64,000 bases of DNA from Acholeplasmatales bacterium (GTDB taxonomy: Bacteria > Bacillota_I > Bacilli_A > Acholeplasmatales > Anaeroplasmataceae): contig CAAGAX010000060.1 of assembly GCA_900767915.1 (NCBI GenBank), positions 87,819 to 151,818 on the forward strand. Direction: 5' to 3'. A program made the position numbers and the translations under genes. Shown here piece after piece: positions 1 through 64,000 of this stretch (position 1 is the stretch's first letter; each line of letters opens with the position of its first letter). The notes beneath the pieces were generated by a model. The model made no database searches, was not told where the DNA came from, and saw only the letters and a list, made by a program, of their open reading frames with translations.

Positions 1-354
1 GTTTTACCTACAGTATTACAAAATCTTGAGAAGGGTAAGCTTCCTACTCATGCATTATTCTCACTTGCAGCATTAATTACTTTCTACCATGGTGTAAGAT
101 TATCTGATGGTTCTAAGATTGATTTACAAGATACTAATGCTTGGTTTATTGAATTATTAGCTAAGCTTTGGGCTGAAAATGATGGTAAGACTCAAGATGG
201 TGCTAAGGCTATCGTTACTGCAGTATTAGGCTTAAAGGATCATTGGGGAGTAGATTTAAATACTCTTGATGGTGTAAATGATTTTGTTACTAAGTCTTTA
301 GTAGCTATTAACACTATGCCAATGAGAGATGCAATTGCTACAATCATTAAGTAA
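1..354 (+). CDS. uxaB: 3' end of tagaturonate reductase / altronate oxidoreductase (mannitol dehydrogenase family C-terminal domain); 5' end lies outside the window
   Basis: Frame 1 is open from base 1 to TAA at 352-354 (...LPTHALFSLAALITFYHG...MPMRDAIATIIK*). It lies directly upstream of uxaA-uxaC, the usual hexuronate context. Confidence 0.6.
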   Translation, partial: VLPTVLQNLEKGKLPTHALFSLAALITFYHGVRLSDGSKIDLQDTNAWFIELLAKLWAENDGKTQDGAKAIVTAVLGLKDHWGVDLNTLDGVNDFVTKSLVAINTMPMRDAIATIIK

Positions 355-380
355 TAAAAATTTAACATAAAGGTGATTCT

Positions 381-1859
381 ATGAAGGATTATATTATCAT
401 AAATGAGTTTGATAATGTGGCTGTTGTACTTCGTCCATTTAAAAAGGGTGAAGTTATTGAAAATGTTACATTACTTGAGGATATCCCACAAGCTCATAAG
501 GTTGCATTAAAAGAAATTAAAAAGGGTGAGAATGTTATTAAGTATGGTAACCCTATTGGACATGCAACAAAGGACATTCATGTAGGTGAGCATGTTCATA
601 CTCATAATGTTCAAACAAATTTAGATAGTGTTATTAATTATGAATATAAGCCAAATTATCCAGAGGTTTTAGGCTATAAGTCTGATAGAACTGTTGATGT
701 ATATGAACGTTCAACTGGAGAATATGGTATTCGTAATGAATTATGGATTATCCAAACAGTTGGCTGTGTTTCTGGTATGGCCAACCGCATAATTGAAAAT
801 TTTAAAGCTAATTATGATACATCAGAAATTGATGGTATATATACATTCCAGCATCCATTTGGTTGTTCACAAATGGGTGGGGATTTAGCTCTAACTCGTA
901 CCTTACTTCAGGATATGGTTAAGCATCCAAATGCTGGTGGAGTATTAGTATTAGGACTTGGCTGTGAGGAAAACCTAGTTAGTACTTTCAAGGATACATT
1001 AGGTAAGTATGACGAATCTCGTACGCGCTTTTTAATATCTCAGGAGGTTAGTGATGAGGTTTATGAGGGAACTAAGTTATTAAAGGAATTATATGATCAA
1101 ATGAAGAATGATAAGAGAGTTACAAAGCCTCTTTCTGTACTTCGTATTGGTTTAAAGTGTGGTGGTTCTGATGGTATGTCAGGCATCACTGCTAACCCTT
1201 TATTAGGTAGATTTTCTGATTTCTTAGCAATTAATGACGCTGCAACAGTTTTAGGAGAGGTTCCTGAAATGTTTGGTGCTGAAAAGCTTTTAATGGCACG
1301 TGCTAAGGATGAAGAGACATTTAATAAAATTGTTAAGCTAATTAATGATTTTAAGATTTATTTTGAGAATCATCATCAGGTAATTTATGATAATCCATCT
1401 CCTGGTAATAAGGCCGGTGGTATCACAACCTTAGAGGATAAGTCTTTAGGCTGTACTCAAAAGGGTGGTGCTTCAAAGGTTAATGGCGTAATGGCTATGG
1501 GTGAAAGAATTAAGGAGCATGGTTTAAATCTATTATGTACTCCTGGAAATGATTTATGTGCTGTTACAACACTTGCTTGTAGTGGATGTCAAATGGTTTT
1601 ATTTACAACTGGTCGTGGTACTCCATTTGGAGGATTTGTACCAACTGTGAAGGTGGCTACAAATACAGCTTTAGCTACAAAGAAGAGTAATTGGATTGAT
1701 TTTAATGCCGGTGATTTAGTAGATAAGCTAGACATGAATCAATTATTAGAGAAATTCATTGATTTAATTTGTGATATTGCCTCTGGTAAAAAGCAAACTA
1801 AGAATGAAATTAATAACTTTAGAGAAATTTCCATTTTTAAAGATGGAGTAGTATTATAA
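381..1859 (+). CDS. uxaA: altronate dehydratase (SAF N-terminal domain plus D-galactarate/altronate dehydratase C-terminal domain)
   Basis: 492-aa ORF with RBS AAAGGTGA upstream. The N-terminal 'NVAVVLRP..KGE' SAF-like segment and the Cys-rich core (GLGCEEN, LKCGGSDG) are typical of UxaA, as is the ~495 aa size. Confidence 0.85.
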   Translation: MKDYIIINEFDNVAVVLRPFKKGEVIENVTLLEDIPQAHKVALKEIKKGENVIKYGNPIGHATKDIHVGEHVHTHNVQTNLDSVINYEYKPNYPEVLGYKSDRTVDVYERSTGEYGIRNELWIIQTVGCVSGMANRIIENFKANYDTSEIDGIYTFQHPFGCSQMGGDLALTRTLLQDMVKHPNAGGVLVLGLGCEENLVSTFKDTLGKYDESRTRFLISQEVSDEVYEGTKLLKELYDQMKNDKRVTKPLSVLRIGLKCGGSDGMSGITANPLLGRFSDFLAINDAATVLGEVPEMFGAEKLLMARAKDEETFNKIVKLINDFKIYFENHHQVIYDNPSPGNKAGGITTLEDKSLGCTQKGGASKVNGVMAMGERIKEHGLNLLCTPGNDLCAVTTLACSGCQMVLFTTGRGTPFGGFVPTVKVATNTALATKKSNWIDFNAGDLVDKLDMNQLLEKFIDLICDIASGKKQTKNEINNFREISIFKDGVVL

Positions 1860-1884
1860 TTTTAATATAAGGAGAAAAAATAAA

Positions 1885-3297
1885 ATGAAGGATTTTATGG
1901 ATGACGATTTCTTATTAACAACAGAAACCGCAAAAAAGCTTTATCATGAGCATGCAGAAAATATGCCAATTATTGACTATCACTGCCATTTACAACCAAA
2001 AGAAATTTATGAGGATAAGAAATTTCGTAATTTAGCTGAGGTTTGGCTAGGAGCTGGTGATCGTTATGGTGATCACTATAAGTGGAGAAGCTTACGTGCT
2101 AGAGGATATGAAGAGGATAGTATTTCTGGTCCTGATGATGACTATAAAAAGTATATGCAATTTGTTGAGTCTATGCCTTATTTTGTTGGCAATCCATTAT
2201 ATCATTGGTCTCATCTTGAAATGAGAAGATACTTTGGTATTTATGATATTATTAATAAAGATAATGCTAAGAAAATTTGGGATGAAGCAAATAAGAAGCT
2301 TGAAACTTTAACAGCAAGACAAATGATGTATAAGTTTAAAGTTGATACTGTTTGTACAACTGACGATCCAGTTGATTCATTAGAGTGGCATAAGAAGATG
2401 AATAATGATTCGACATTAAAGGTTCATGTTCGTCCTGCTTTCCGTCCTGATAAGGCAATTAATGTTGAATTATCTTGGTTTGAATCTTGGGTAAATCAAT
2501 TAGCATCAGTAGTTGGTTATAAGATTGAATCATTAAATGATTTATGTAAGGCTTTAGCTGAAAGAATTAATTTCTTCCATGAAATGGGTTCTCGCTTATC
2601 AGATCATGCCTTAGATGTTGTACATTATACTCCTGCAACTTATGAAGAAGCTAATAAGGTATTCTTAAAGGGTATGCATCATGAAGCAATTTCTTCATTA
2701 GAAGAAGATCAATATAAGGGTTATATTCTTGTATTCTTAGGTAAGGAATATCATAAGCATGGCTGGGTTCAACAATATCATATTGGCGCATTAAGAAATA
2801 ATTCAAAATCAATGCTAAAGAAGATTGGACCAGATACAGGCTTTGATGCAATTGAAGATCAAAACTATATGGAAAAGCTTTCTAGCTTATTAGGAGCTTT
2901 AGATGAAACTGATGAACTTCCTAAGACAATTCTATATTGCTTAAATCCAAGAGATAATTATGCTTTAACAGTATTAGCAGGCTGCTTCCAAAAGGAAGGA
3001 GTTAAGGGTAGAGTTCAAGTTGGTACTGCTTGGTGGTTCTTAGATCAACAAGATGGTATGAAACAAAATCTTGAAACATTAATGCAAGTTGGCTTAGTTG
3101 CTCAATCTGTAGGTATGTTAACAGATTCACGTAGCTTCTTAGCTTATCCTCGTCATGAATATTATAGACGTATTCTTTGCCAAATGCTTGGTAATTTAGT
3201 TGAATCAGGTCAATATCCTCAATCTGAATTAGATACATTAGGTAAGATTGTTGAAGATGTTTGCTATAATAATGCTAAGGAATACTTTGGATTCTAA
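1885..3297 (+). CDS. uxaC: glucuronate (uronate) isomerase
   Basis: 470-aa ORF with RBS AAGGAGAA. The N-terminus 'FLLTTETAKKLYHEHAENMPIIDYHCHL' matches the conserved UxaC opening motif, and the size is typical. Confidence 0.9.
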   Translation: MKDFMDDDFLLTTETAKKLYHEHAENMPIIDYHCHLQPKEIYEDKKFRNLAEVWLGAGDRYGDHYKWRSLRARGYEEDSISGPDDDYKKYMQFVESMPYFVGNPLYHWSHLEMRRYFGIYDIINKDNAKKIWDEANKKLETLTARQMMYKFKVDTVCTTDDPVDSLEWHKKMNNDSTLKVHVRPAFRPDKAINVELSWFESWVNQLASVVGYKIESLNDLCKALAERINFFHEMGSRLSDHALDVVHYTPATYEEANKVFLKGMHHEAISSLEEDQYKGYILVFLGKEYHKHGWVQQYHIGALRNNSKSMLKKIGPDTGFDAIEDQNYMEKLSSLLGALDETDELPKTILYCLNPRDNYALTVLAGCFQKEGVKGRVQVGTAWWFLDQQDGMKQNLETLMQVGLVAQSVGMLTDSRSFLAYPRHEYYRRILCQMLGNLVESGQYPQSELDTLGKIVEDVCYNNAKEYFGF

Positions 3298-3311
3298 TAG
3301 CTAAATAAAAA

Positions 3312-3340
3312 AAGATGGGATATTAATCTCATCTTTTTTC
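3312..3340 (+). terminator. rho-independent terminator after uxaC
   Basis: 10-bp stem AAGATGGGAT / ATCTCATCTT (one G-U pair), 4-nt loop, followed by a T-run. Confidence 0.7.
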
Positions 3341-3371
3341 GGCTTTATAATTATGTGAAAAAGGAGAAAAA

Positions 3372-3794
3372 ATGAAAAAAAGAAAAATACCTGATATTAT
3401 TATATTTTCAATTTATGCATTATCAGTAGTCTTTTTAAGTATATTTGGAATAATATGGGGCTTCTCACCTAGTTTTTATCAAATGCTTTTATATTTTATA
3501 ATGGGCTTTGGAATTGTAGGACTTCTTGGAATTTTAGCAAAGCTACTTATTGATAAAAATTATGATTTTAATATATATGGATTAGCTTTTTTAGTATCAT
3601 TAACTGTAATTGCCATCTTATGTCATTATATAGTTAAATATTTCAAATTATATGAGATTTTACCTTGGCTTTCGTGGACTATTTTAATTTCATTAATTTT
3701 AATTTCATTAAGTATATGTTTGATTTTAAATATTAAAAAATTAAATAATAAAAAATCATCTAACAAGCCAAAAATTGTTTCAAATAGCAGATAA
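3372..3794 (+). CDS. small polytopic membrane protein, function unknown
   Basis: 140-aa ORF with RBS AAGGAGAA. About 4 hydrophobic helices and a basic C-terminal tail. Confidence 0.5.
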   Translation: MKKRKIPDIIIFSIYALSVVFLSIFGIIWGFSPSFYQMLLYFIMGFGIVGLLGILAKLLIDKNYDFNIYGLAFLVSLTVIAILCHYIVKYFKLYEILPWLSWTILISLILISLSICLILNIKKLNNKKSSNKPKIVSNSR

Positions 3795-3881
3795 TTTTTT
3801 AATTAGTTTTTTTAAAATACTACAAATTTGTAGTGTTGTGTGATAAAATAGTAAAAGCATATTTGTGCATGGAGGTATTTT

Positions 3882-6311
3882 ATGAGTGAATATAATCATA
3901 TAGATATAGAAAAAAAATGGCAAAAATATTGGGAGGATAATCACACTTTTAAGACAGATGTATGGGATTTCTCTAAACCAAAATTTTATGCCCTTGATAT
4001 GTTTCCATATCCATCTGGAGTAGGACTTCATGCAGGTCACCCTGAAGGATATACAGCAACTGATATTATTTCAAGAATGAAAAGAATGCAAGGATATAAT
4101 GTATTACATCCAATGGGATATGATTCATTTGGTTTACCTGCAGAGCAATACGCTATTCAAACTGGAAATCATCCTGAAGGCTTTACAAAGAAAAATATTG
4201 GAACATTTACTAAGCAATTAAAGGAATTAGGCTTTGATTATGATTGGGATAAATGCATTTCAACTAGCGATCCTGAATTTTATCATTGGACTCAATGGAT
4301 ATTTAAAAATTTATATTTAGATGGCTATGCTAAATATATTGATATGCCAGTTAATTGGTGTGAGGAATTAGGTACAGTTTTATCAAATGATGAGGTTATC
4401 GATGGTAAAAGTGAACGTGGTGGATATCCTGTTATTCGTAAAAATATGAAGCAATGGGTTATTGATCAGCCTAAGTTTGCTGAAGGATTATTAGAAGGCT
4501 TAAATGAAATTGATTGGCCTGAATCAACAAAGGAAATGCAAAAAAATTGGATTGGTAAATCTACAGGCGTTGAGGTTGATTTTAAGATTGTTGGTGGTGG
4601 AGAATTTTCTATCTTTACAACTTGTATCGAAACAATTTATGGTATTACATTTATGGTTTTAGCACCTGATGGACAAATTGTTAAGGATTTAATGCCAAGA
4701 ATCGAAAATAAGGATGAGGTTAATGCCTATATTGCTGAAACCTTAAAGAAAAATGATTTAGATCGTACTGAATTAAATAAAACAAAGAGTGGATGTATAT
4801 TAAAGGGCTTATACGCAATTAATCCTGTTAATGGTAAAGAGGTTCCTTTATTTATTGGTGATTTCGTATTAGCTAGCTATGGTACTGGTGCAGTTATGGC
4901 AGTGCCTAGTCATGATCAAAGAGATTTTGAATATGCAAAAGCTCATAATATTCCAATGATTCAAGTTATTGAGGGTAGAGATGTCAGTGAATGTGCTTTT
5001 GAAAAGAAGGATTATTTAGATTCAGAATATCATTTAATTAATTCTATGGAATTTACTGGAATGACAGTGTTAGAAGCAAAAGAAGCAATTACTAAAAAGC
5101 TTGAGACAATGGGTGTTGCTAGACGTAAGGCTAATTATCGATTCCGTGAATGGATATTTGCTCGTCAACGTTATTGGGGTGAGCCAGTACCTGTTGTTCA
5201 TACAGATGATGGAAAGGTATTTGTTTTACCTGATGATGAACTACCTCTTATTTTACCAGAGCTAGATGATTATAAGGGTCAAAATGGTAAGGCACCACTT
5301 GAAAATGCTAAAGACTGGAAGGAATATAATAAGCATGGTATTCATGGTACACGTGAAACATCTACTATGCCAGGTTCAGCAGGCTCAAGTTGGTATTATA
5401 TGCGCTATATAGATCCAAAAAATGATAAGGAATTAGCTAATAAGGAATTATTAAAGCATTGGATGCCAGTAGATTTATATATTGGTGGACCAGAACATGC
5501 AGTAGGACACCTAATGTATGCTCGTATTTGGAATAGATATTTATATGATAAAGGAATTTCTCCTGTTAAAGAACCATTTAAGAAGCTTGTTCATCAAGGT
5601 ATGATTTTAGGCTCAAATGGTATTAAGATGGGTAAGAGATTCCCAGAATATGTTGTAAATCCTTCTACAATTGTTAAAGAATATGGTGCCGATACTCTTA
5701 GATTATATGAAATGTTTATGGGACCACTTGAGGCATCTAAGCCTTGGAGTCAAGCAGGCGTTGAAGGCGCTAGACGTTTTGTTGAAAGAGTTTATCGTTT
5801 AGTTACTGATTCAGAATATACAAAGAGATTTACTAAGGAATATGATAAGACATTAGAAAAGATATACAATCAAACTGTTAAAAAGGTTACAACTGATTTT
5901 GAAGCTTTAAGCTTTAATACAGGTATTTCTCAATTAATGGTCTTTGTTAATGAGGCTTATAAGGCTGAACATATTTATATTGGCTTTATTGAGGGATTAG
6001 TTCAATTGATTTCTCCAGTTACACCACATTTAGGTGAGGAGCTATGGCAAATTCTTGGTCATAATGAATCAATCGCTTATTCAAAATGGCCTACATATGA
6101 TGAAGAATTAACAAAGGAAAATGATGTAACATATGCTGTATCAGTTAATGGTAAATTAAGAGATACTATTTCTATCGCTATTAATACTGATAAGGAAAAA
6201 GTGGAAAAGATTGCGTTATCTAGTGAAAAGGTTAAAAAATATACTGATGGACATAATATTGTAAAAATTATTGTTGTTCCTAATAAGATTGTTAATATTG
6301 TTATAAAATAA
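3882..6311 (+). CDS. leuS: leucine--tRNA ligase (canonical)
   Basis: 809 aa. HIGH region 'PYPSGVGLHAGHPEGY', CP1 editing block 'GTGAVMAVPSHDQRDFEYA', KMSKS-type loop 'IKMGKR', and 'GADTLRLYEMFMGPL'. Confidence 0.95.
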   Translation: MSEYNHIDIEKKWQKYWEDNHTFKTDVWDFSKPKFYALDMFPYPSGVGLHAGHPEGYTATDIISRMKRMQGYNVLHPMGYDSFGLPAEQYAIQTGNHPEGFTKKNIGTFTKQLKELGFDYDWDKCISTSDPEFYHWTQWIFKNLYLDGYAKYIDMPVNWCEELGTVLSNDEVIDGKSERGGYPVIRKNMKQWVIDQPKFAEGLLEGLNEIDWPESTKEMQKNWIGKSTGVEVDFKIVGGGEFSIFTTCIETIYGITFMVLAPDGQIVKDLMPRIENKDEVNAYIAETLKKNDLDRTELNKTKSGCILKGLYAINPVNGKEVPLFIGDFVLASYGTGAVMAVPSHDQRDFEYAKAHNIPMIQVIEGRDVSECAFEKKDYLDSEYHLINSMEFTGMTVLEAKEAITKKLETMGVARRKANYRFREWIFARQRYWGEPVPVVHTDDGKVFVLPDDELPLILPELDDYKGQNGKAPLENAKDWKEYNKHGIHGTRETSTMPGSAGSSWYYMRYIDPKNDKELANKELLKHWMPVDLYIGGPEHAVGHLMYARIWNRYLYDKGISPVKEPFKKLVHQGMILGSNGIKMGKRFPEYVVNPSTIVKEYGADTLRLYEMFMGPLEASKPWSQAGVEGARRFVERVYRLVTDSEYTKRFTKEYDKTLEKIYNQTVKKVTTDFEALSFNTGISQLMVFVNEAYKAEHIYIGFIEGLVQLISPVTPHLGEELWQILGHNESIAYSKWPTYDEELTKENDVTYAVSVNGKLRDTISIAINTDKEKVEKIALSSEKVKKYTDGHNIVKIIVVPNKIVNIVIK

Positions 6312-11092: not shown

Positions 11093-12488
11093 AGAAGAGA
11101 TAAATGAAATAGTTGGTGATTACAAATATGGCTTTACAACTGATGCGAAAACTGTTTTAACATCAGGTAAGGGATTATCAAAAGAGGTTGTTGAATTTAT
11201 TTCTAGAGCTAAGCATGAGCCTGATTGGATGAGAGAATTTAGATTAAATGCTTATGAGGCATTTTTAAAAATTCCTAATCCAAGCTGGGGACCAGACTTA
11301 TCTAGTATAGATTTTGATGAATATACTTATTATATAAAATCATCAGAAAAAACTGAAAATTCATGGGATGAGGTTCCAGAGCCTATTAGAGATACCTTTA
11401 ATAAATTAGGTATTCCTGAAGCAGAGGCAAAATATTTAGCCGGATCATCAACACAATTTGAATCAGAGGTTGTTTATCATAATAATTTGAAGGAATTAGA
11501 TGAACAAGGAGTAATATTTTGTGATACAGATACTGCAGTTAGATTATATCCTGATTTAGTAAAGGAATATTTTGGTAAAATTGTTCCTTATACTGACAAT
11601 AAATATGCAGCCTTAAATAGTGCTGTATGGAGTGGTGGGTCATTTATTTATGTACCGAAGGGCGTAAAGCTTACAAAGCCAGTTCAATCATATTTTAGAA
11701 TTAATTCTGAAAGAATGGGACAATTCGAAAGAACACTTATTATTGTTGAGGATGAGGCTGATGTCCATTATGTAGAAGGCTGTACTGCTCCTCAATATTC
11801 AAAGGATTCCTTACATGCGGCAGTAGTTGAAATTTATGTTAAGAAGCATGCACATTGTCGTTATTCAACAGTTCAAAACTGGAGTAACAATATTGTTAAC
11901 CTGGTAACAAAGCGTACATTAGTTGATGATTATGGACATATGGAGTGGATTGACGGAAACGTTGGAGCTGGATTAAATATGAAATATCCTGCGTGCGTAT
12001 TAAAGGGAAAGCATTCAAAGGGAACTACAATTTCTATTGCTTTCGCATCCCAAGGACAATTACAGGATACAGGTGCTAAAATGATTCATTTAGGTGAAGG
12101 CTCAACCTCTACTATTATTTCAAAGAGTATTTGCAGAAGTGGTGGTAAGGTTAACTATCGTGGTATGGTTTCATGTGGTAATAAGGCACTTGGTGCGAGA
12201 AGCCATGTTGAATGTGATACCTTAATTTTAGATGGTGAATCAACATCAGATACAATTCCTACAAATACAGGAAAAAATAGTGACATGTATATTGAGCATG
12301 AGGCTACTGTTTCAAAGGTTAATGAGGAACAGCTATTTTATTTAATGAGTAGAGGTTTAACAGAATCTGAAGCTACAGAGATGATTGTTATGGGCTTTAT
12401 TGAACCATTTAGTAAGGAATTACCAATGGAGTATGCGGTTGAATTAAATAGATTAATTAAGCTTGAAATGGTTAATTCTATTGGATAA
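11079..12488 (+). CDS. sufB: Fe-S cluster assembly protein SufB
   Basis: 469 aa. '[17 protein letters not shown]' and 'KYPACVLKG' are typical SufB sequences. Confidence 0.95.
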
Positions 12489-12513
12489 AATTAAATTTAT
12501 TTATAAAAATACT

Positions 12514-12547
12514 AGCATTTTGTTAATTGTAGCAAAATGCTTTTTTC
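12514..12547 (+). terminator. rho-independent terminator closing the suf operon
   Basis: 9-bp perfect stem AGCATTTTG / CAAAATGCT followed by TTTTTTC. Confidence 0.7.
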
Positions 12548-12633
12548 TTTAAATATATTTCTTGCTTAATAATGATAAATATAATAAAATTTATGTAATG
12601 AAATTTATTTATTTTAAAAAAAGAGGTGATTTT

Positions 12634-14031
12634 GTGGCATCTATTTTTGATATTACAGGAGATAATTTTTTCACTCCTCTTGCTAGTAAAAATAAAAAAA
12701 TATATATCGATACAATTTTATATTTACATAGTCTAATTAATGAGCTTTTTGAAGCCTCAGCTAATGAAAAAAATAAAATAATTGATTCTTTAGCTTCTCA
12801 TTTAGACGATTTAGCCTATATAGAGCTATATGATGATAGTACTAATAATGAAATAGAAGATAATATCGATAATTACAATAAAGCTAAAATTATTATTAAT
12901 TCATTAATTAATTATGGATGGCTAGTAGAAGAGTCTATTGGAGATGGAAAAAGAGCAATGGACTTTTCTAGTGTCAGCTATAGCTTTATAGCTTTAATTG
13001 AAGAAATGATGAATAATAAAAAGCCATCATATACAGGCTCTGTAAGAATTCTTAAGAATTATACTGAAACCTTTGATTATACAAGAATTGATAGCCTTGA
13101 AATTATCGATAGTGAGCTTTCTAAATTGGTTGTTTCCTTAAGAGGATTAAGATCAAGTATTCAAAAATATTATAAAAATATAACTAAAAATAAAAGTACA
13201 GTAGATTTAGAGGAGCTTTTAAATGAATTTACTGGTGAATATAAGGATGCCTTTTTTGATTCTTCCTATTTAAGATTGAAAATAATAGATAATATTGATA
13301 TTGAGATTCCCAAAATTGAGGATAGGCTTTTAGAAATATTTGATGATAAAAACTTTTTTAACATAGAAAAACTAATTAATTCAAGAATAGATAAGGATTA
13401 TAAAACCTATGAGGATGCTTTAAAATATTATTATGAAGCTAAAAAAAATATTTTTATAAATATAAGATCAATTCCTTCATTAATTAAAATGATTGATTCA
13501 AAGAATAATAAATATGTAACAAGAACAGTTAGTGTTATTATTCATTTAATTAATAGAGGAGAGGATATTGAAGGTATTTTAAATAGATTAATATCTTATA
13601 TTAAGAATGATAAGGAGCTAATAGATGATAAATATTTATCAATATTTGAAATGAAGCATTATTCATTTGATTTACTTGCACGTCCCAAAAAGAAGTCTAT
13701 TAAAATTAAACCTGAGGCAGTACCAATAGATATTGAAATTAGTGATGAAGTAAAAAAAGAAGCCTTATTAAGCTTAGAAAATGATAAAAAATATAATATT
13801 ACTAATGTTAATAAATTTGTTTTAGATTTTCTAAATGATAAAAATGAAAAAGAAATAAAAGAACTTGAAATAAAATCAAAGTTTGAATTTATAATGATAA
13901 TCTGTATTATTATGTATTCTAAAATACCTAATGCTATATATGATTTAAAGCCATTAAATGAAAGAATTCATAAAAATAATATTTCATTTAATAATTTTAT
14001 TATAAGAATAAAGGGAGGATATAATGACTAA
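12634..14031 (+). CDS. jetA: Wadjet JetA (MksF/kleisin-like subunit)
   Basis: First gene of a 4-gene overlapping operon with JetB/C/D-like partners. Best start is GTG 12634, behind RBS AGAGGTGA; the ORF track starts it at 12562. About 465 aa, fitting the size and position of JetA. The call rests mainly on context. Confidence 0.6.
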   Translation: MASIFDITGDNFFTPLASKNKKIYIDTILYLHSLINELFEASANEKNKIIDSLASHLDDLAYIELYDDSTNNEIEDNIDNYNKAKIIINSLINYGWLVEESIGDGKRAMDFSSVSYSFIALIEEMMNNKKPSYTGSVRILKNYTETFDYTRIDSLEIIDSELSKLVVSLRGLRSSIQKYYKNITKNKSTVDLEELLNEFTGEYKDAFFDSSYLRLKIIDNIDIEIPKIEDRLLEIFDDKNFFNIEKLINSRIDKDYKTYEDALKYYYEAKKNIFINIRSIPSLIKMIDSKNNKYVTRTVSVIIHLINRGEDIEGILNRLISYIKNDKELIDDKYLSIFEMKHYSFDLLARPKKKSIKIKPEAVPIDIEISDEVKKEALLSLENDKKYNITNVNKFVLDFLNDKNEKEIKELEIKSKFEFIMIICIIMYSKIPNAIYDLKPLNERIHKNNISFNNFIIRIKGGYND

Positions 14032-58193: not shown

Positions 58194-59102
58194 ATGAAAT
58201 TAATTTCTTATAGTACTATTTTAAACAATTTAATTGAAATTAAAAAAAATAATGGTACCTCTTTTGTAGTTAAAAATAATGCTTATGGCTTTGATATTGA
58301 AAAAATAGCTAATCTTGCAATAAAAGCGGGAATAGAAGAGCTTGCCGTTATAGATTATATTGAAGCTATAAAAATTAGAAAAATTGATAAAGATGTAAGA
58401 ATACTATTGTTGGCTGGTTCTAAATGTGATTTAGAATTATTAAAAAAATATAATATTATTGCTAGTGCGGAAAATGAAGAGGAATATCTATATTATAAAA
58501 AAAATAATATAAGAATGGCTTTAAAGGTTGATGTTGGAATGCATCGCTTTGGAATTAGAAATTTAGAAAATAAATATTTATTAGATGATATGGTTGAAGA
58601 AATTTATTTTCATTTACCATTAGCTTTAAATAGTTATAATTCTATTATTTCTTATTATAGTAATCTATGTAATCAATATAACAAAAGATATCACTTTGGA
58701 GGAAGTGCATTATATAAAAAATATAACGTTCCAATAAGATTTGGAATAATTGCTTATAATAATTCAATTCAATTATATGGAAAAATAATTGCTTTAAAAT
58801 ATCTTAAGAAAAATGCAACGTTAGGATATAATGAATATTATAAAGCAAATGATGATATCTATTATGCAATTATAGATATAGGTTACTATAATGGTTTAAA
58901 TAGAAATAATAAATATAAAGTATTTTATCATAATGAATATTATGAATCTATTGGATTATTATGTATGAATCATTTATTTATTAGAGCTAATTCTAATTTT
59001 AAAATAGGAGAATATGTAGAATTTATAGGAGAAAATATTAAAATTGAGGATTTAGCTAATGAAGATTTATCAGTATATGAGTTAATACTACGTTTAAAAT
59101 GA
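58194..59102 (+). CDS. alanine racemase-like PLP enzyme (compact, 302 aa)
   Basis: 'VVKNNAYGFD' matches the PLP-lysine motif (V.KANAYGHG). 'LGYNEYY' and 'IGLLCMNHLFI' match the C-terminal domain motifs. It is about 60-80 aa shorter than typical Alr. Confidence 0.6.
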   Translation: MKLISYSTILNNLIEIKKNNGTSFVVKNNAYGFDIEKIANLAIKAGIEELAVIDYIEAIKIRKIDKDVRILLLAGSKCDLELLKKYNIIASAENEEEYLYYKKNNIRMALKVDVGMHRFGIRNLENKYLLDDMVEEIYFHLPLALNSYNSIISYYSNLCNQYNKRYHFGGSALYKKYNVPIRFGIIAYNNSIQLYGKIIALKYLKKNATLGYNEYYKANDDIYYAIIDIGYYNGLNRNNKYKVFYHNEYYESIGLLCMNHLFIRANSNFKIGEYVEFIGENIKIEDLANEDLSVYELILRLK

Positions 59103-61835: not shown

Positions 61836-61906
61836 TTCTTAAGAAGTGGATATGTTTACAAAATCATTCTAATTTGGTATAATCTATCTTGCGAGGAGGC
61901 AATTAT

Positions 61907-62143
61907 ATGTCAGTTTTTGAAAAAGTAAAGGAGACAATCGTTAATAATATTAAGGTTGATCCAGATAAAATAACTCTTGATACAGATCTTAAGAAGGATT
62001 TGCATGCAGATAGTATCGATGCTGTACAAGTAATTATGGATTTAGAGGACGAGTATGGTATTGAAATTGATGTTGATAAAATTCAGGATGATTCAACAGT
62101 TAGAGGAATAGTTAATTATATTGAAAAATTAATAAAAAAATAA
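61907..62143 (+). CDS. acpP: acyl carrier protein
   Basis: RBS GAGGAGG precedes ATG 61907; the ORF track starts it at 61889. 'DLHADSIDAVQVIMDLEDEYGIEI' carries the phosphopantetheine Ser motif (DSxD). 78 aa. Confidence 0.85.
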   Translation: MSVFEKVKETIVNNIKVDPDKITLDTDLKKDLHADSIDAVQVIMDLEDEYGIEIDVDKIQDDSTVRGIVNYIEKLIKK

Positions 62144-62146
62144 AAG

Positions 62147-62167
62147 AAGGGCTAAATGCCCTTTTTA
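62147..62167 (+). terminator. rho-independent terminator or attenuator after acpP
   Basis: AAGGGC-TAAAT-GCCCTT followed by a short T-run. It ends only ~8 nt before the RBS of the next gene. Confidence 0.65.
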
Positions 62168-62188
62168 AATTTCTAAGGAGGTGATTAG

Positions 62189-64000
62189 ATGAATATTTAT
62201 GAATGGTATACTAAATGGCAAAATGATAAATGCTTTATGATTGAGAATGATTGCTTAAAGGAAAAAATAAGCATCATTTCATCTATACCTAGAGCTGATA
62301 TTTATGGCTTTCAGGATTTAAGAATAAGAGAGCTTTTAGCTTCTGATATTAAGGCAAGATATGAAAGAATGAGAAATAAAAATGTATTATTTCCTGTAGG
62401 ATTTGATTCCTTATGTAATAAATCATTTTTAGAAAATAAGAAACAACAAAATAAGATTTCTGATGAATTGTCTGATAATTTATTTAGACAAATGTTATAT
62501 TTAGGAATTGGTGTTAATAAAAGTAAAACTATAGATATGAGACATGATGAATATCTATCTAATTTACAATTATTTTTTATTGAATTATTTAATAAAGGTT
62601 ATATTGAATATGATAATTTAAAGCTATATTATGATGAAGAGAATAATAAGATTTATGATTTAATAAATACCCCATCTACTAATTTACCTATGATAAATAA
62701 AAAAGTATTTTATTTGAATATAGAATCTATCACCCCTGAGCTTATTTCTGATATAAATAGATTAGATTTAAATGATGATGTTAAAAATAATTTAATTAAT
62801 TATTTAATTCCTATAAAAAAGCTTTCTATGAATTTACATTTAAGTAACAATAAAGAAATAAACATTAAAATGGATGAACCTCAATATATAGCTGGTATTA
62901 GCTTTATATTAATTAATCCTGAATATTTAGAAAATGACTATGATATTAATAATCTTGTTGATATAAATGAATATAATTCCTTAGCTAATTTTTTTGAAGG
63001 TAAAATCAATTCCTTTTTTAGTGGAATTTATGCAAAAAATCCCTTAACTATGAAGAATATTCCTATATTTATTTCTAATATTATTACATCAAGTATTCAT
63101 TTAGGTATCCCTGATATAGATTGTGAAGATGAGGCTATTTGTAAGGAAATTGGTATTAGCTATATTAAAATAATAGAAAATGGTTTATTAATTAATTCTG
63201 ATTTATTAAATGGTTTATCATTAAATAGAGCTAAAGAAAAGATATTTAATGTATTTTCTAATGAAGGTATTGGTGATATTATTTATGATTATGGTTTAAA
63301 GAAAATATTATTATCATCCTTAGATCCCTTTGGTGCGTTATTTCCTTTTTTAAATGATGAGGGAGATAAGCTATATTCATTAGAAAGCTTTTTACCATAT
63401 AATTTTTCTACTCAATTTAGGCCCATTCTAAAGGAAGGAGTAGATATTCCTGGCAAAACTATTGATGGAACTATTAATAATTTATTTTCAATTGGATGTT
63501 ATCCTATTATTTCTATTTTATATGATGAGATTGCTTTAAATGAAAGTATATTTTCTTCAAATACTAAGGATGAATTAAATAAATGGGCACCATTCTCTTT
63601 AAATGTAATTAAAAAGGAAAATATATTAACTGAACTATTTATGCCTTTAGTTTTATATAATTATTTAAAAAGAGAATTTAATTATGATATTCCGCCTTTA
63701 TTTAAAAAAATAATTTTAGTTGGTAAAACATTAGATATTAAAGAGCATGAAATTAGTAAGAAGAATAATAATTTTGTTGATTTTGATTATCTTTTACAAG
63801 AATTTTCTTCTGATTCAATAAGGTTATATTTTGAAAGTAAGCCTTTAGGTGATGATTTCATCTTTAATAAAGATGAATTATCTGATATAGATTTATTAAT
63901 AAAATCATTGAAAACCTCATTATTAAATAAATCTATAGAAATAAATCCTAGCTTAGATTTTGAGCTTGATATTTTATCAAATAAAATAGAACAAGCTTTA
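62189..64000 (+). CDS. LeuRS-like paralog lacking HIGH, KMSKS and editing-site signatures (partial; continues beyond the window)
   Basis: RBS AAGGAGGTG (62175-62183) and ATG 62189. By hand translation it is open for all 604 codons to the window edge, and it is absent from the ORF track because no stop is reached. It is colinear with leuS at 3882-6311: 'NVLFPVGFDS' vs 'NVLHPMGYDS', and 'SSDSIRLYFES' vs 'GADTLRLYEMF'. Confidence 0.75.
   Translation, partial: MNIYEWYTKWQNDKCFMIENDCLKEKISIISSIPRADIYGFQDLRIRELLASDIKARYERMRNKNVLFPVGFDSLCNKSFLENKKQQNKISDELSDNLFRQMLYLGIGVNKSKTIDMRHDEYLSNLQLFFIELFNKGYIEYDNLKLYYDEENNKIYDLINTPSTNLPMINKKVFYLNIESITPELISDINRLDLNDDVKNNLINYLIPIKKLSMNLHLSNNKEINIKMDEPQYIAGISFILINPEYLENDYDINNLVDINEYNSLANFFEGKINSFFSGIYAKNPLTMKNIPIFISNIITSSIHLGIPDIDCEDEAICKEIGISYIKIIENGLLINSDLLNGLSLNRAKEKIFNVFSNEGIGDIIYDYGLKKILLSSLDPFGALFPFLNDEGDKLYSLESFLPYNFSTQFRPILKEGVDIPGKTIDGTINNLFSIGCYPIISILYDEIALNESIFSSNTKDELNKWAPFSLNVIKKENILTELFMPLVLYNYLKREFNYDIPPLFKKIILVGKTLDIKEHEISKKNNNFVDFDYLLQEFSSDSIRLYFESKPLGDDFIFNKDELSDIDLLIKSLKTSLLNKSIEINPSLDFELDILSNKIEQAL

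Follow-up and report, generated by a model that had tools for sequence, protein, structure and literature searches.

The right-hand end of a 64,000-nucleotide stretch of DNA from an Acholeplasmatales bacterium (assembly GCA_900767915.1, contig CAAGAX010000060.1, positions 87,819 to 151,818 of the forward strand; hereafter the window) carries an open reading frame (ORF) that is related to leucyl-tRNA synthetase (LeuRS). The ORF starts with ATG at position 62189 of the plus strand, directly downstream of acpP, the gene for an acyl carrier protein (ACP), and stays open for 604 codons up to the edge of the window. The canonical LeuRS gene of the same genome, leuS, also lies inside the window, so that both proteins coexist in one genome. 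Our analysis indicates that the ORF very probably encodes a conserved LeuRS paralog that does not aminoacylate tRNA; this assignment comes from the state of its sequence motifs. On balance we lean towards a wider reading, in which the protein is a LeuRS pseudoenzyme that is maintained by selection, does not charge tRNA and acts by binding through a surface centred on its CP1 domain. Taken by itself, CP1-centred binding of a ligand or partner is a tentative proposal for the mechanism. An initial annotation, made from the DNA letters, had already described the ORF as a pseudo-synthetase that keeps the LeuRS fold, and profile alignment, AlphaFold2 models, intact orthologs and the ratio of nonsynonymous to synonymous substitutions (dN/dS) all speak in favour of that description.

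Coding potential, fold and motif state of the paralog

The ORF is preceded by a GGAGG ribosome-binding site, and the chance that 604 codons remain open by accident is P ~4e-28 (stop probability per codon 0.099; region GC 22.2%). The other five frames over 62189-64000 contain 20-126 stops each. These data bear out the earlier view that this is a real coding ORF with a strong ribosome-binding site. The part of the gene beyond the window was obtained from an overlapping metagenomic contig of 167 kb (locus L001, 10001-12010), which encodes an identical protein, P0001. The full product is intact and has 669 amino acids; hence the window contains the first 90% of the gene (604/669 codons). The paralog has the lowest GC content of its neighbourhood, namely 22.2% versus 32.6% in the true leuS, and its GC content at the first codon position is 0.305 versus 0.465. 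This richness in AT, compared with leuS, is consistent with a weaker constraint on the amino acids in an AT-biased genome.

The relationship to LeuRS is evident from a BLASTP comparison with the LeuRS of the window (3882-6311), in which residues 5-547 of the paralog are colinear with residues 12-609 (22% identity, E 2e-25), as the initial annotation had noticed. The similarity is well below the level of a genuine LeuRS. The 604-residue part scored 108.7 bits against TIGR00396, the equivalog model for bacterial LeuRS with a cutoff of 548.4, while the window LeuRS reached 980.3 bits. Pfam returned only weak matches to class I and LeuRS-editing domains.

An AlphaFold2 model of P0001, which was built on a family alignment of 52 sequences, had a pLDDT of 91.6 and a pTM of 0.87. 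The top 50 Foldseek matches in the PDB were all bacterial LeuRS (E 3e-38 to 5e-26; TMq 0.64-0.71). A model of P0092, a member of the most divergent subgroup with an identity of only ~23%, was also confident (pLDDT 88.7) and matched bacterial LeuRS with TMq values up to 0.76. Over both models the leading matches lie at E 1e-38 to 1e-33. The LeuRS fold is kept in the models, and so is the architecture, with a Rossmann catalytic core, a CP1 domain inserted at the bacterial position and a helical anticodon-binding domain. In the distant members of the family PF13603 (CP1) is matched by 23/36 and Pfam Anticodon_1 by 12/36; several closer members match the latter as well.

The label "full-length" that the ORF had first been given does not fit. 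Every member of the family stops at a conserved "WP" that precedes the C-terminal domain of LeuRS, and the tRNA-binding C-terminal domain is therefore absent. The Cys-rich, CxxC-containing insertion of LeuRS is also missing from all members, and the paralog is 140 residues shorter than the LeuRS from the same genome.

The state of the catalytic motifs was examined in a MAFFT alignment of 107 family members and 62 real LeuRS, which was reduced to 67 and 44 non-redundant sequences respectively. A second approach, in which the family profile was aligned to E. coli LeuRS, gave the same register. The results are listed in Table 1.

Table 1. Residues at LeuRS signature positions in real LeuRS and in the paralog family. 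Numbers after residues are percentages of the non-redundant sequences.
Motif	Real LeuRS	Paralog family
HIGH	H100-x-G100-H100	Q43/N15/S9/T9 - x - G40 - D27/N19/K10/T9
Asp of GxDxFG	D100	N54/D28/H13
RQRYW	R100 Q98 R93 Y93 W100	S70, L37, D64, variable, F55
KMSKS	K100 M100 S98 K100 S91	E/D/L/P - I48 - variable - R48/K22 - variable
Editing threonines of TTRPDT	T93, T91, T89	L/M, D/E, Y/L/F

None of the 67 family members has a His at either position of HIGH. The first Lys of KMSKS is lost (E16/D15/L13/P10), and in several distant members the alignment has gaps over the KMSKS stretch. The Asp of the GxDxFG segment, which corresponds to D73 of the paralog and presumably binds the amino group of leucine, is present in a minority of the family. 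The losses in the editing domain extend beyond the three threonines to the GTG loop and to the His-Asp of HDxRD. The last Asp of HDxRD is kept (96%), and the Pro and the Asp/Glu of TTRPDT persist as P94 and E73. The residues that the family shares with LeuRS include D53, N65, P69, G71, G382, P386, R545 and the editing Asp.

The replacements in HIGH, CP1 and KMSKS had originally been read by eye from a comparison with the window LeuRS. Each of these pairings was reproduced by BLASTP, by the profile and by the 107+62 alignment. A misplacement of the motifs by eye is ruled out, because the BLASTP, HMM-to-PDB and MAFFT registers agree and the profile alignment recovers neither an intact HIGH nor an intact KMSKS. 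The stronger statement, that every catalytic signature is erased, holds for HIGH, for the first Lys of KMSKS and for the T-rich and GTG elements. It does not hold for the editing-pocket Asp (D314 in the paralog), which is kept in 96% of the members, or for the second Lys of KMSKS, where 70% have R or K. With this correction, the view that the chemistry of adenylation and of editing is gone from the paralog is well supported by the alignments.

Distribution, selection and proposed working surface of the family

The family comprises more than 100 members with a length of 615-700 amino acids. A word-indexed search produced 57 clusters with 35-85% identity, nearly all of them 657-684 amino acids long. 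In an exhaustive profile search about 55 representatives (50% identity; 620-690 amino acids) ranked ahead of the first real LeuRS, and the scores formed a continuum from 948 down to ~210 bits. Additional subgroups were recovered with the profiles A3 and A4. The distant subgroups include members from the assemblies GCA_031553215.1, GCA_963623875.1 and GCA_045126355.1. Among the GTDB species genomes that were scanned, 29 species of Anaeroplasma-like lineages carry the near subgroup; the hosts are labeled Anaeroplasma, Anaeroplasmataceae, Acholeplasmatales or Ca. Pelethenecus, or they carry the loosely assigned labels of metagenome-assembled genomes (MAGs). One host is a cultured organism, the type strain Anaeroplasma bactoclasticum ATCC 27112 (locus L018, 6001-7974; contig NZ_QXEV01000002.1).

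Members of the family appear in databases under different names. They are called "class I tRNA ligase family protein" or "hypothetical protein" at NCBI and "leucyl-tRNA synthetase" at JGI/IMG (e.g. P0047, P0282-P0287, P0347). The latter label can corrupt metabolic reconstructions, copy-number surveys of aminoacyl-tRNA synthetases (aaRS) and marker-gene phylogenies of gut lineages.

The paralog is under purifying selection, it is vertically inherited and it is not decaying. The ORF is intact in 39/39 loci, with products of 657-687 amino acids, and no frameshifts or stops occur down to an identity of ~23%; the possibility of a decaying duplicate, which had been raised at the outset, was checked in this way. 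Among orthologs, dN/dS (Nei-Gojobori) was 0.17, 0.26, 0.16, 0.27 and 0.22 in the five least-saturated pairs, and 0.37 in a sixth, saturated pair. These values are approximate because dS is high (0.6-0.8 in the five pairs, and near saturation for most pairs). They fall inside the range of the neighbouring housekeeping genes (0.02-0.5). The mean pairwise identity over 26 shared loci was 0.35 for the paralog, compared with 0.60 for ACP, 0.61 for MnmL and 0.57 for PolC. The distances of the paralog nonetheless track those of PolC (r = 0.84 for the pairwise identities), which is consistent with vertical descent. The LeuRS of the window is not the real LeuRS nearest to the family profile. It ranked 82nd and 66th among 127 real LeuRS against two family profiles, with candidates that had been pre-selected by profile score. 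The ranking gives no support to a recent copying of the window's own leuS within the lineage; either the duplication is old or its source is beyond the resolution of a profile ranking.

In the reading that we favour, the formation of leucyl-adenylate (Leu-AMP) and the charging of tRNA would have been lost and the paralog would act as a binding protein. The working surface would be the CP1-like domain together with the N-terminal half of the Rossmann fold. This choice of a functional centre follows from the conservation profile and from the retained amine-binding Asp of the editing pocket. Conservation peaks in the CP1 blocks 281-300 (0.60) and 321-340 (0.55), followed by the N-terminal Rossmann blocks 21-40, 61-80 and 121-140 (0.52-0.53). 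The minima are in blocks 461-480, 501-520 and 561-600 (~0.29-0.30), which lie around what was once the KMSKS region and in a part of the anticodon-binding domain.

As a ligand, tRNA would be less likely than a partner protein or a small molecule that bears an amine. The family has a median pI of 4.83 and a net charge of -28, while the corresponding values are 6.45 and -6 for real LeuRS and 5.82 and -16 for the LeuRS of the same genome. In the family alignment we found no newly gained conserved basic patch; nearly every one of the few basic residues that are conserved sits at an ancestral LeuRS position. The acidity and the lack of a gained basic patch argue against tRNA as the main ligand, and they are also unlike the usual surface on which an ACP docks. 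Binding of tRNA by the paralog is thus disfavoured by the predicted properties of the protein, since its C-terminal domain is lost and its pI is acidic.

Several points weigh against this picture. The loss of adenylation is deduced by motif logic, and a basic residue (K/R) occupies the position of the second KMSKS lysine in 70% of the members. Binding centred on CP1 is argued from two things, the conservation profile and one retained Asp. The conserved residues belong mostly to the ancestral core of LeuRS and may reflect the constraint of folding rather than a binding site. Finally, the fast evolution of the paralog (0.35 versus 0.57-0.61) would also be expected of a weakly constrained protein with a marginal function.

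The acpP neighbourhood and possible alternative functions

The paralog has an invariant neighbour. In 39/39 loci a gene for an ACP of 75-85 amino acids is directly upstream on the same strand, which bears on the co-occurrence with acpP that the initial annotation had proposed to survey. This ACP scores above the cutoff of NF002150 and is an ordinary one of the housekeeping type. The region upstream of acpP is variable and occurs in at least six contexts, namely thrC-thrB-ACT, hom, a MalK-like ABC ATPase, xylB-xylA, a phosphoribosyltransferase and trmFO-xerC. Downstream, a convergent mnmL/ytqA usually comes first, followed by DUF1189, polC and a BaxI-family gene. In locus L001 mnmL/ytqA, a tRNA-modification gene of the radical-SAM type (TIGR01212, 315 bits), is located at 12007-12933, i.e. 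beyond the right edge of the window. The 3' end of mnmL overlaps or abuts that of the paralog by a few to ~25 nucleotides in many loci. In at least 7/39 loci the junction with mnmL is broken or displaced by insertions of 0.5-1.8 kb. The features of the window are collected in Table 2.

Table 2. Features of the window that bear on the paralog. Positions count from the first nucleotide of the window.
Feature	Position	Strand	Remarks
True leuS of this genome (comparator)	3882..6311	+	TIGR00396 980 bits vs cutoff 548; HAGH present; KMGKR at KMSKS
Promoter-like site upstream of acpP	61855..61883	+	TTTACA, 17-nt spacer, TATAAT, TG extended -10; 11/12 hexamer matches, best of region; consensus match only
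acpP, acyl carrier protein, 78 amino acids, DSID phosphopantetheine-attachment motif	61907..62143	+	NCBIfam NF002150 77.1 bits vs cutoff 66; Pfam PP-binding
Terminator-like hairpin between acpP and paralog	62147..62166	+	AAGGGC-TAAAT-GCCCTT, then T-run
Shine-Dalgarno sequence GGAGG	62177..62181	+	7 nt ahead of ATG
LeuRS-derived pseudo-synthetase gene (predicted), codons 1-604 of 669	62189..64000	+	Cut by window edge
HIGH remnant, QDLR in place of HxGH	62312..62323	+	Profile alignment and family alignment
D73, Asp of GxDxFG segment	62405..62407	+	D in 100% of real LeuRS; family N54/D28/H13
CP1 (editing)-like domain, residues 215-352	62831..63244	+	Best-conserved family blocks; Pfam PF13603 E 1.5e-5
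T-rich editing motif remnant, MDEPQY in place of TTRPDT	62870..62887	+	Profile and family alignments
D314, equivalent to editing-pocket Asp D345 of E. coli LeuRS, retained	63128..63130	+	D in 96% of 67 members, 95% in real LeuRS
KMSKS loop remnant, EISKK	63749..63763	+	Profile and family alignments

The gap between acpP and the paralog is 36-66 nucleotides long in most loci. When the gaps of 35 other loci were folded, essentially all of them contained a G+C-rich hairpin with a T-rich tail, the sequence of which is specific for the locus; in most orthologous loci a GGAGG-like ribosome-binding site follows the hairpin. The promoter-like site ahead of acpP has no comparable counterpart ahead of the paralog in the window. 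The paralog would be transcribed mainly from the acpP promoter, by read-through of a leaky acpP terminator. We infer this from the strong promoter-like site before acpP, from the lack of one before the paralog and from the fact that most gaps are too short. Two distant loci (L087 7904-8000; L090 7905-8000) have a longer gap of ~96 nucleotides with extended -10-like elements, TGTTATAAT and TGTATAAT respectively, downstream of the terminator hairpin. These elements suggest that the paralog has a promoter of its own in the two lineages.

The constant position next to acpP offers a concrete hypothesis that can be tested, namely that the LeuRS scaffold was repurposed to work together with the adjacent ACP. 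One possibility is a regulator or scaffold in lipid metabolism that binds ACP in its apo, holo or acyl form. Another is that the protein loads or unloads the phosphopantetheine arm with the help of Leu-tRNA or a different pre-activated donor; this variant draws on the analogy with cyclodipeptide synthases, which use aminoacyl-tRNA and have no ATP motifs. The adjacency in 39/39 loci persists down to ~23% identity, despite six or more upstream contexts and in spite of the disrupted mnmL junctions, and homologs of aaRS that aminoacylate carrier proteins do exist (ligases that join an amino acid to a carrier protein, aa:CP ligases; PMC9437257). On the other hand, the ACP is a housekeeping protein, a terminator-like hairpin separates both genes in essentially every locus and L087 and L090 appear to carry their own extended -10 in the gap. 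Furthermore, the mnmL-DUF1189-polC-BaxI genes are also syntenic without an obvious functional link, and the identities of ACP and paralog correlate no better (r = 0.47) than those of ACP and MnmL (0.50), although ACP is short and this is a weak test. The usual basic patch for ACP docking has not been gained either. Taken together, a function coupled to ACP is unlikely. It is slightly less likely again that the pairing reflects biochemistry and not just co-expression, with an ACP-directed synthetase scaffold that lacks an ATP site. One role for such a scaffold would be to read how ACP is acylated, as a sensor or regulator. It could also be a transferase or hydrolase that uses the remodelled CP1 pocket and the retained Asp to pass an aminoacyl or acyl group, already activated, from tRNA or a small molecule to the phosphopantetheine arm or back. 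If an ACP-directed function were true, it would establish a new link between the fold repertoire of translation and the metabolism of lipids and carrier proteins in cholesterol-dependent, genome-reduced gut Mollicutes. As improbable as a function coupled to ACP is a regulator that binds tRNA-Leu or Leu-tRNA-Leu without charging it and so buffers, sequesters or senses the tRNA. Bacterial LeuRS requires its C-terminal domain to hold tRNA-Leu, and no family member has this domain. With a median pI of 4.83 the proteins are strongly acidic, conservation is lowest in the KMSKS region and in part of the anticodon-binding domain, and nearly all of the few conserved basic positions are inherited from LeuRS. 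What speaks for such a regulator is the retained helical anticodon-binding domain (Anticodon_1 in 12/36 distant members), the convergent neighbour MnmL/YtqA, which modifies tRNA, and the precedent of the archaeal LeuRS duplicates (PMC9437257).

The remaining explanations assume that some of the original chemistry has survived or that the gene has no function. The strong conservation of the CP1 blocks, the editing Asp in 96% of the members and the persistence of Pro and Asp/Glu from TTRPDT (P94, E73) would fit a free-standing editing factor, in which the synthetic site is dead but the CP1-like domain, acting in trans, still cleaves some aminoacyl ester or a thioester. Against this, other residues stand in place of all three threonines in the T-rich motif, of the GTG loop and of the HDxRD His-Asp, and the position of T252 is taken by a bulky Tyr, Leu or Phe. 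In E. coli LeuRS a bulky residue at T252 blocks the editing pocket, and we consider a hydrolase of this kind very unlikely. A divergent but active leucyl- or other aminoacyl-tRNA synthetase, for instance an antibiotic-resistant spare, is still less probable. The overall fold, the basic residue at the second KMSKS Lys in 70% and the JGI label "leucyl-tRNA synthetase" are compatible with it. The His of HIGH, the first KMSKS Lys, RQRYW and the leucine-binding Asp are lost, KMSKS is gapped in some members, the TIGR00396 score is five-fold under the cutoff and the paralog evolves much faster than its essential neighbours. The lowest GC content of the neighbourhood (22.2%) and the fast substitution could in principle point to a decaying duplicate, a pseudogene in progress, or to a chance ORF. 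We give this explanation practically no weight. It is refuted by the 39/39 intact ORFs, by dN/dS of 0.16-0.27, by confident AlphaFold2 models of two distant members and by the chance probability of ~4e-28.

A comparison with known systems places the paralog in a familiar broad kind of protein. It is very probably an aaRS-derived pseudoenzyme, and it differs from the others in that it is of the bacterial type, that the ATP motifs and the C-terminal domain are lost and that acpP is a fixed neighbour. Bacterial LeuRS (E. coli 4AQ7, T. thermophilus 1H3N/2V0C, N. gonorrhoeae 7NUC) have the same fold and domain order as the paralog. Their HIGH, T-rich and GTG motifs, the C-terminal domain and the Cys-rich insertion are absent from it and KMSKS is degraded. 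It therefore shares the fold of bacterial LeuRS but not HIGH, KMSKS, the equivalog score, the C-terminal domain or the editing site. The LeuRS of Mycoplasma mobile (3ZIU), which is also a Foldseek match of the paralog model (E 5e-26), has lost CP1 and kept HIGH and KMSKS. It is described in PMC3643597 as active in aminoacylation. Like the paralog it is a LeuRS from Mollicutes in which whole domains are lost; the paralog, in contrast, keeps CP1 and loses the catalytic motifs. HisZ, a regulatory subunit that resembles HisRS, no longer aminoacylates and has HisG as its partner. It resembles the paralog as a bacterial aaRS paralog that is kept for a role other than charging tRNA, and it is catalogued with similar non-catalytic paralogs in Table 1 of PMC9437257; the parent synthetase and the class of the paralog are different.

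The closest parallels from the same parent enzyme are archaeal. LeuRS-I of Sulfolobaceae is reported to form Leu-AMP and to bind tRNA-Leu without aminoacylating it (Weitzel et al. 2020, as summarised in PMC9437257). In that account it is a second LeuRS-derived protein beside a canonical LeuRS, with a disrupted editing domain and an altered C-terminus, which is also true for the paralog. The paralog is unlike this archaeal-type protein in that it is bacterial-type, has no adenylation motifs and has its C-terminal domain deleted. Since the lineages are unrelated, the two proteins have separate origins. LeuRS2 from haloarchaea (Natrialba magadii) keeps the catalytic motifs and the affinity for tRNA-Leu and has a low charging activity (PMC4005665, PMC9437257). 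Both proteins are duplicated LeuRS with a charging activity that is reduced in LeuRS2 and probably lost in the paralog, which lacks the catalytic motifs of LeuRS2. The aa:CP ligases (SerRS-, GlyRS- and AlaRS-like) are, according to the summary of Mocibob et al. (2010) in PMC9437257, class II proteins with intact ATP and amino-acid sites and with dedicated carrier proteins. They share with the paralog the lack of a tRNA-binding domain and the gene neighbourhood with a carrier protein (39/39 loci). They differ from it in class, the paralog being class Ia without ATP motifs or a class II core, and in the housekeeping type of the neighbouring ACP. A 2022 review of aaRS duplications lists only LeuRS-I and LeuRS2 for LeuRS and gives no function for a paralog (PMC9437257). 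The literature that we searched contained nothing relevant on a bacterial family of LeuRS pseudo-paralogs, on Anaeroplasma LeuRS or on DUF1189, in agreement with the initial annotation, which knew of no characterised bacterial family of this kind.

Synthetase paralogs that do not charge tRNA have repeatedly given rise to new biology, as in HisZ, PoxA, YadB, the aa:CP ligases and the cyclodipeptide synthases. The present paralog has lost both class I signatures as well as the domain that holds the tRNA, and yet it is intact across lineages that are only ~23% identical.

Further observations in the window and in related loci

A comparison of two loci from Anaeroplasma MAGs (L008, ~300-5260; L009, 5250-9850) revealed a mosaic divergence. 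Identity is 94-98% (dS 0.04-0.15) in alr, thrC, thrB and a gene for a lipoprotein, whereas the segment from the ACT-domain gene through acpP, the paralog, mnmL and DUF1189 is only 67-91% identical (dS 0.4-0.85). This suggests a recombination boundary that adjoins the acpP-paralog block.

A search of the whole 64,000-nucleotide window with Rfam found no T-box or other regulatory RNA upstream of leuS or of the paralog. PADLOC gave no match to anti-phage defence proteins for P0001, P0092 or the DUF1189 neighbour, and a role as a component of a defence system was rejected for this reason.

The canonical LeuRS of the window has peculiarities of its own. Its KMSKS loop reads KMGKRFPE versus the consensus KMSKSKGN, whose Asn occurs in 98% of the 44 real LeuRS, and its T-rich editing motif is TTCIET versus TTRPDT. 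The protein still scores 980 bits against TIGR00396.

Only three tRNA genes are present in the window, for Leu-TAG (27621), Trp-CCA (45638) and His-GTG (50715). The CCA anticodon of the only tRNA-Trp in the window and the long ORFs that are open under table 11 fit the standard code and not a code in which UGA encodes Trp. Finally, genes of the cell-wall type occur in these genomes. They comprise a Mur ligase and a D-Ala-D-Ala ligase (L006, 2-2415) as well as an alanine racemase (window 58194-59102, and in L001), and they are unexpected in the nominally wall-less, Mollicutes-type Anaeroplasmataceae.

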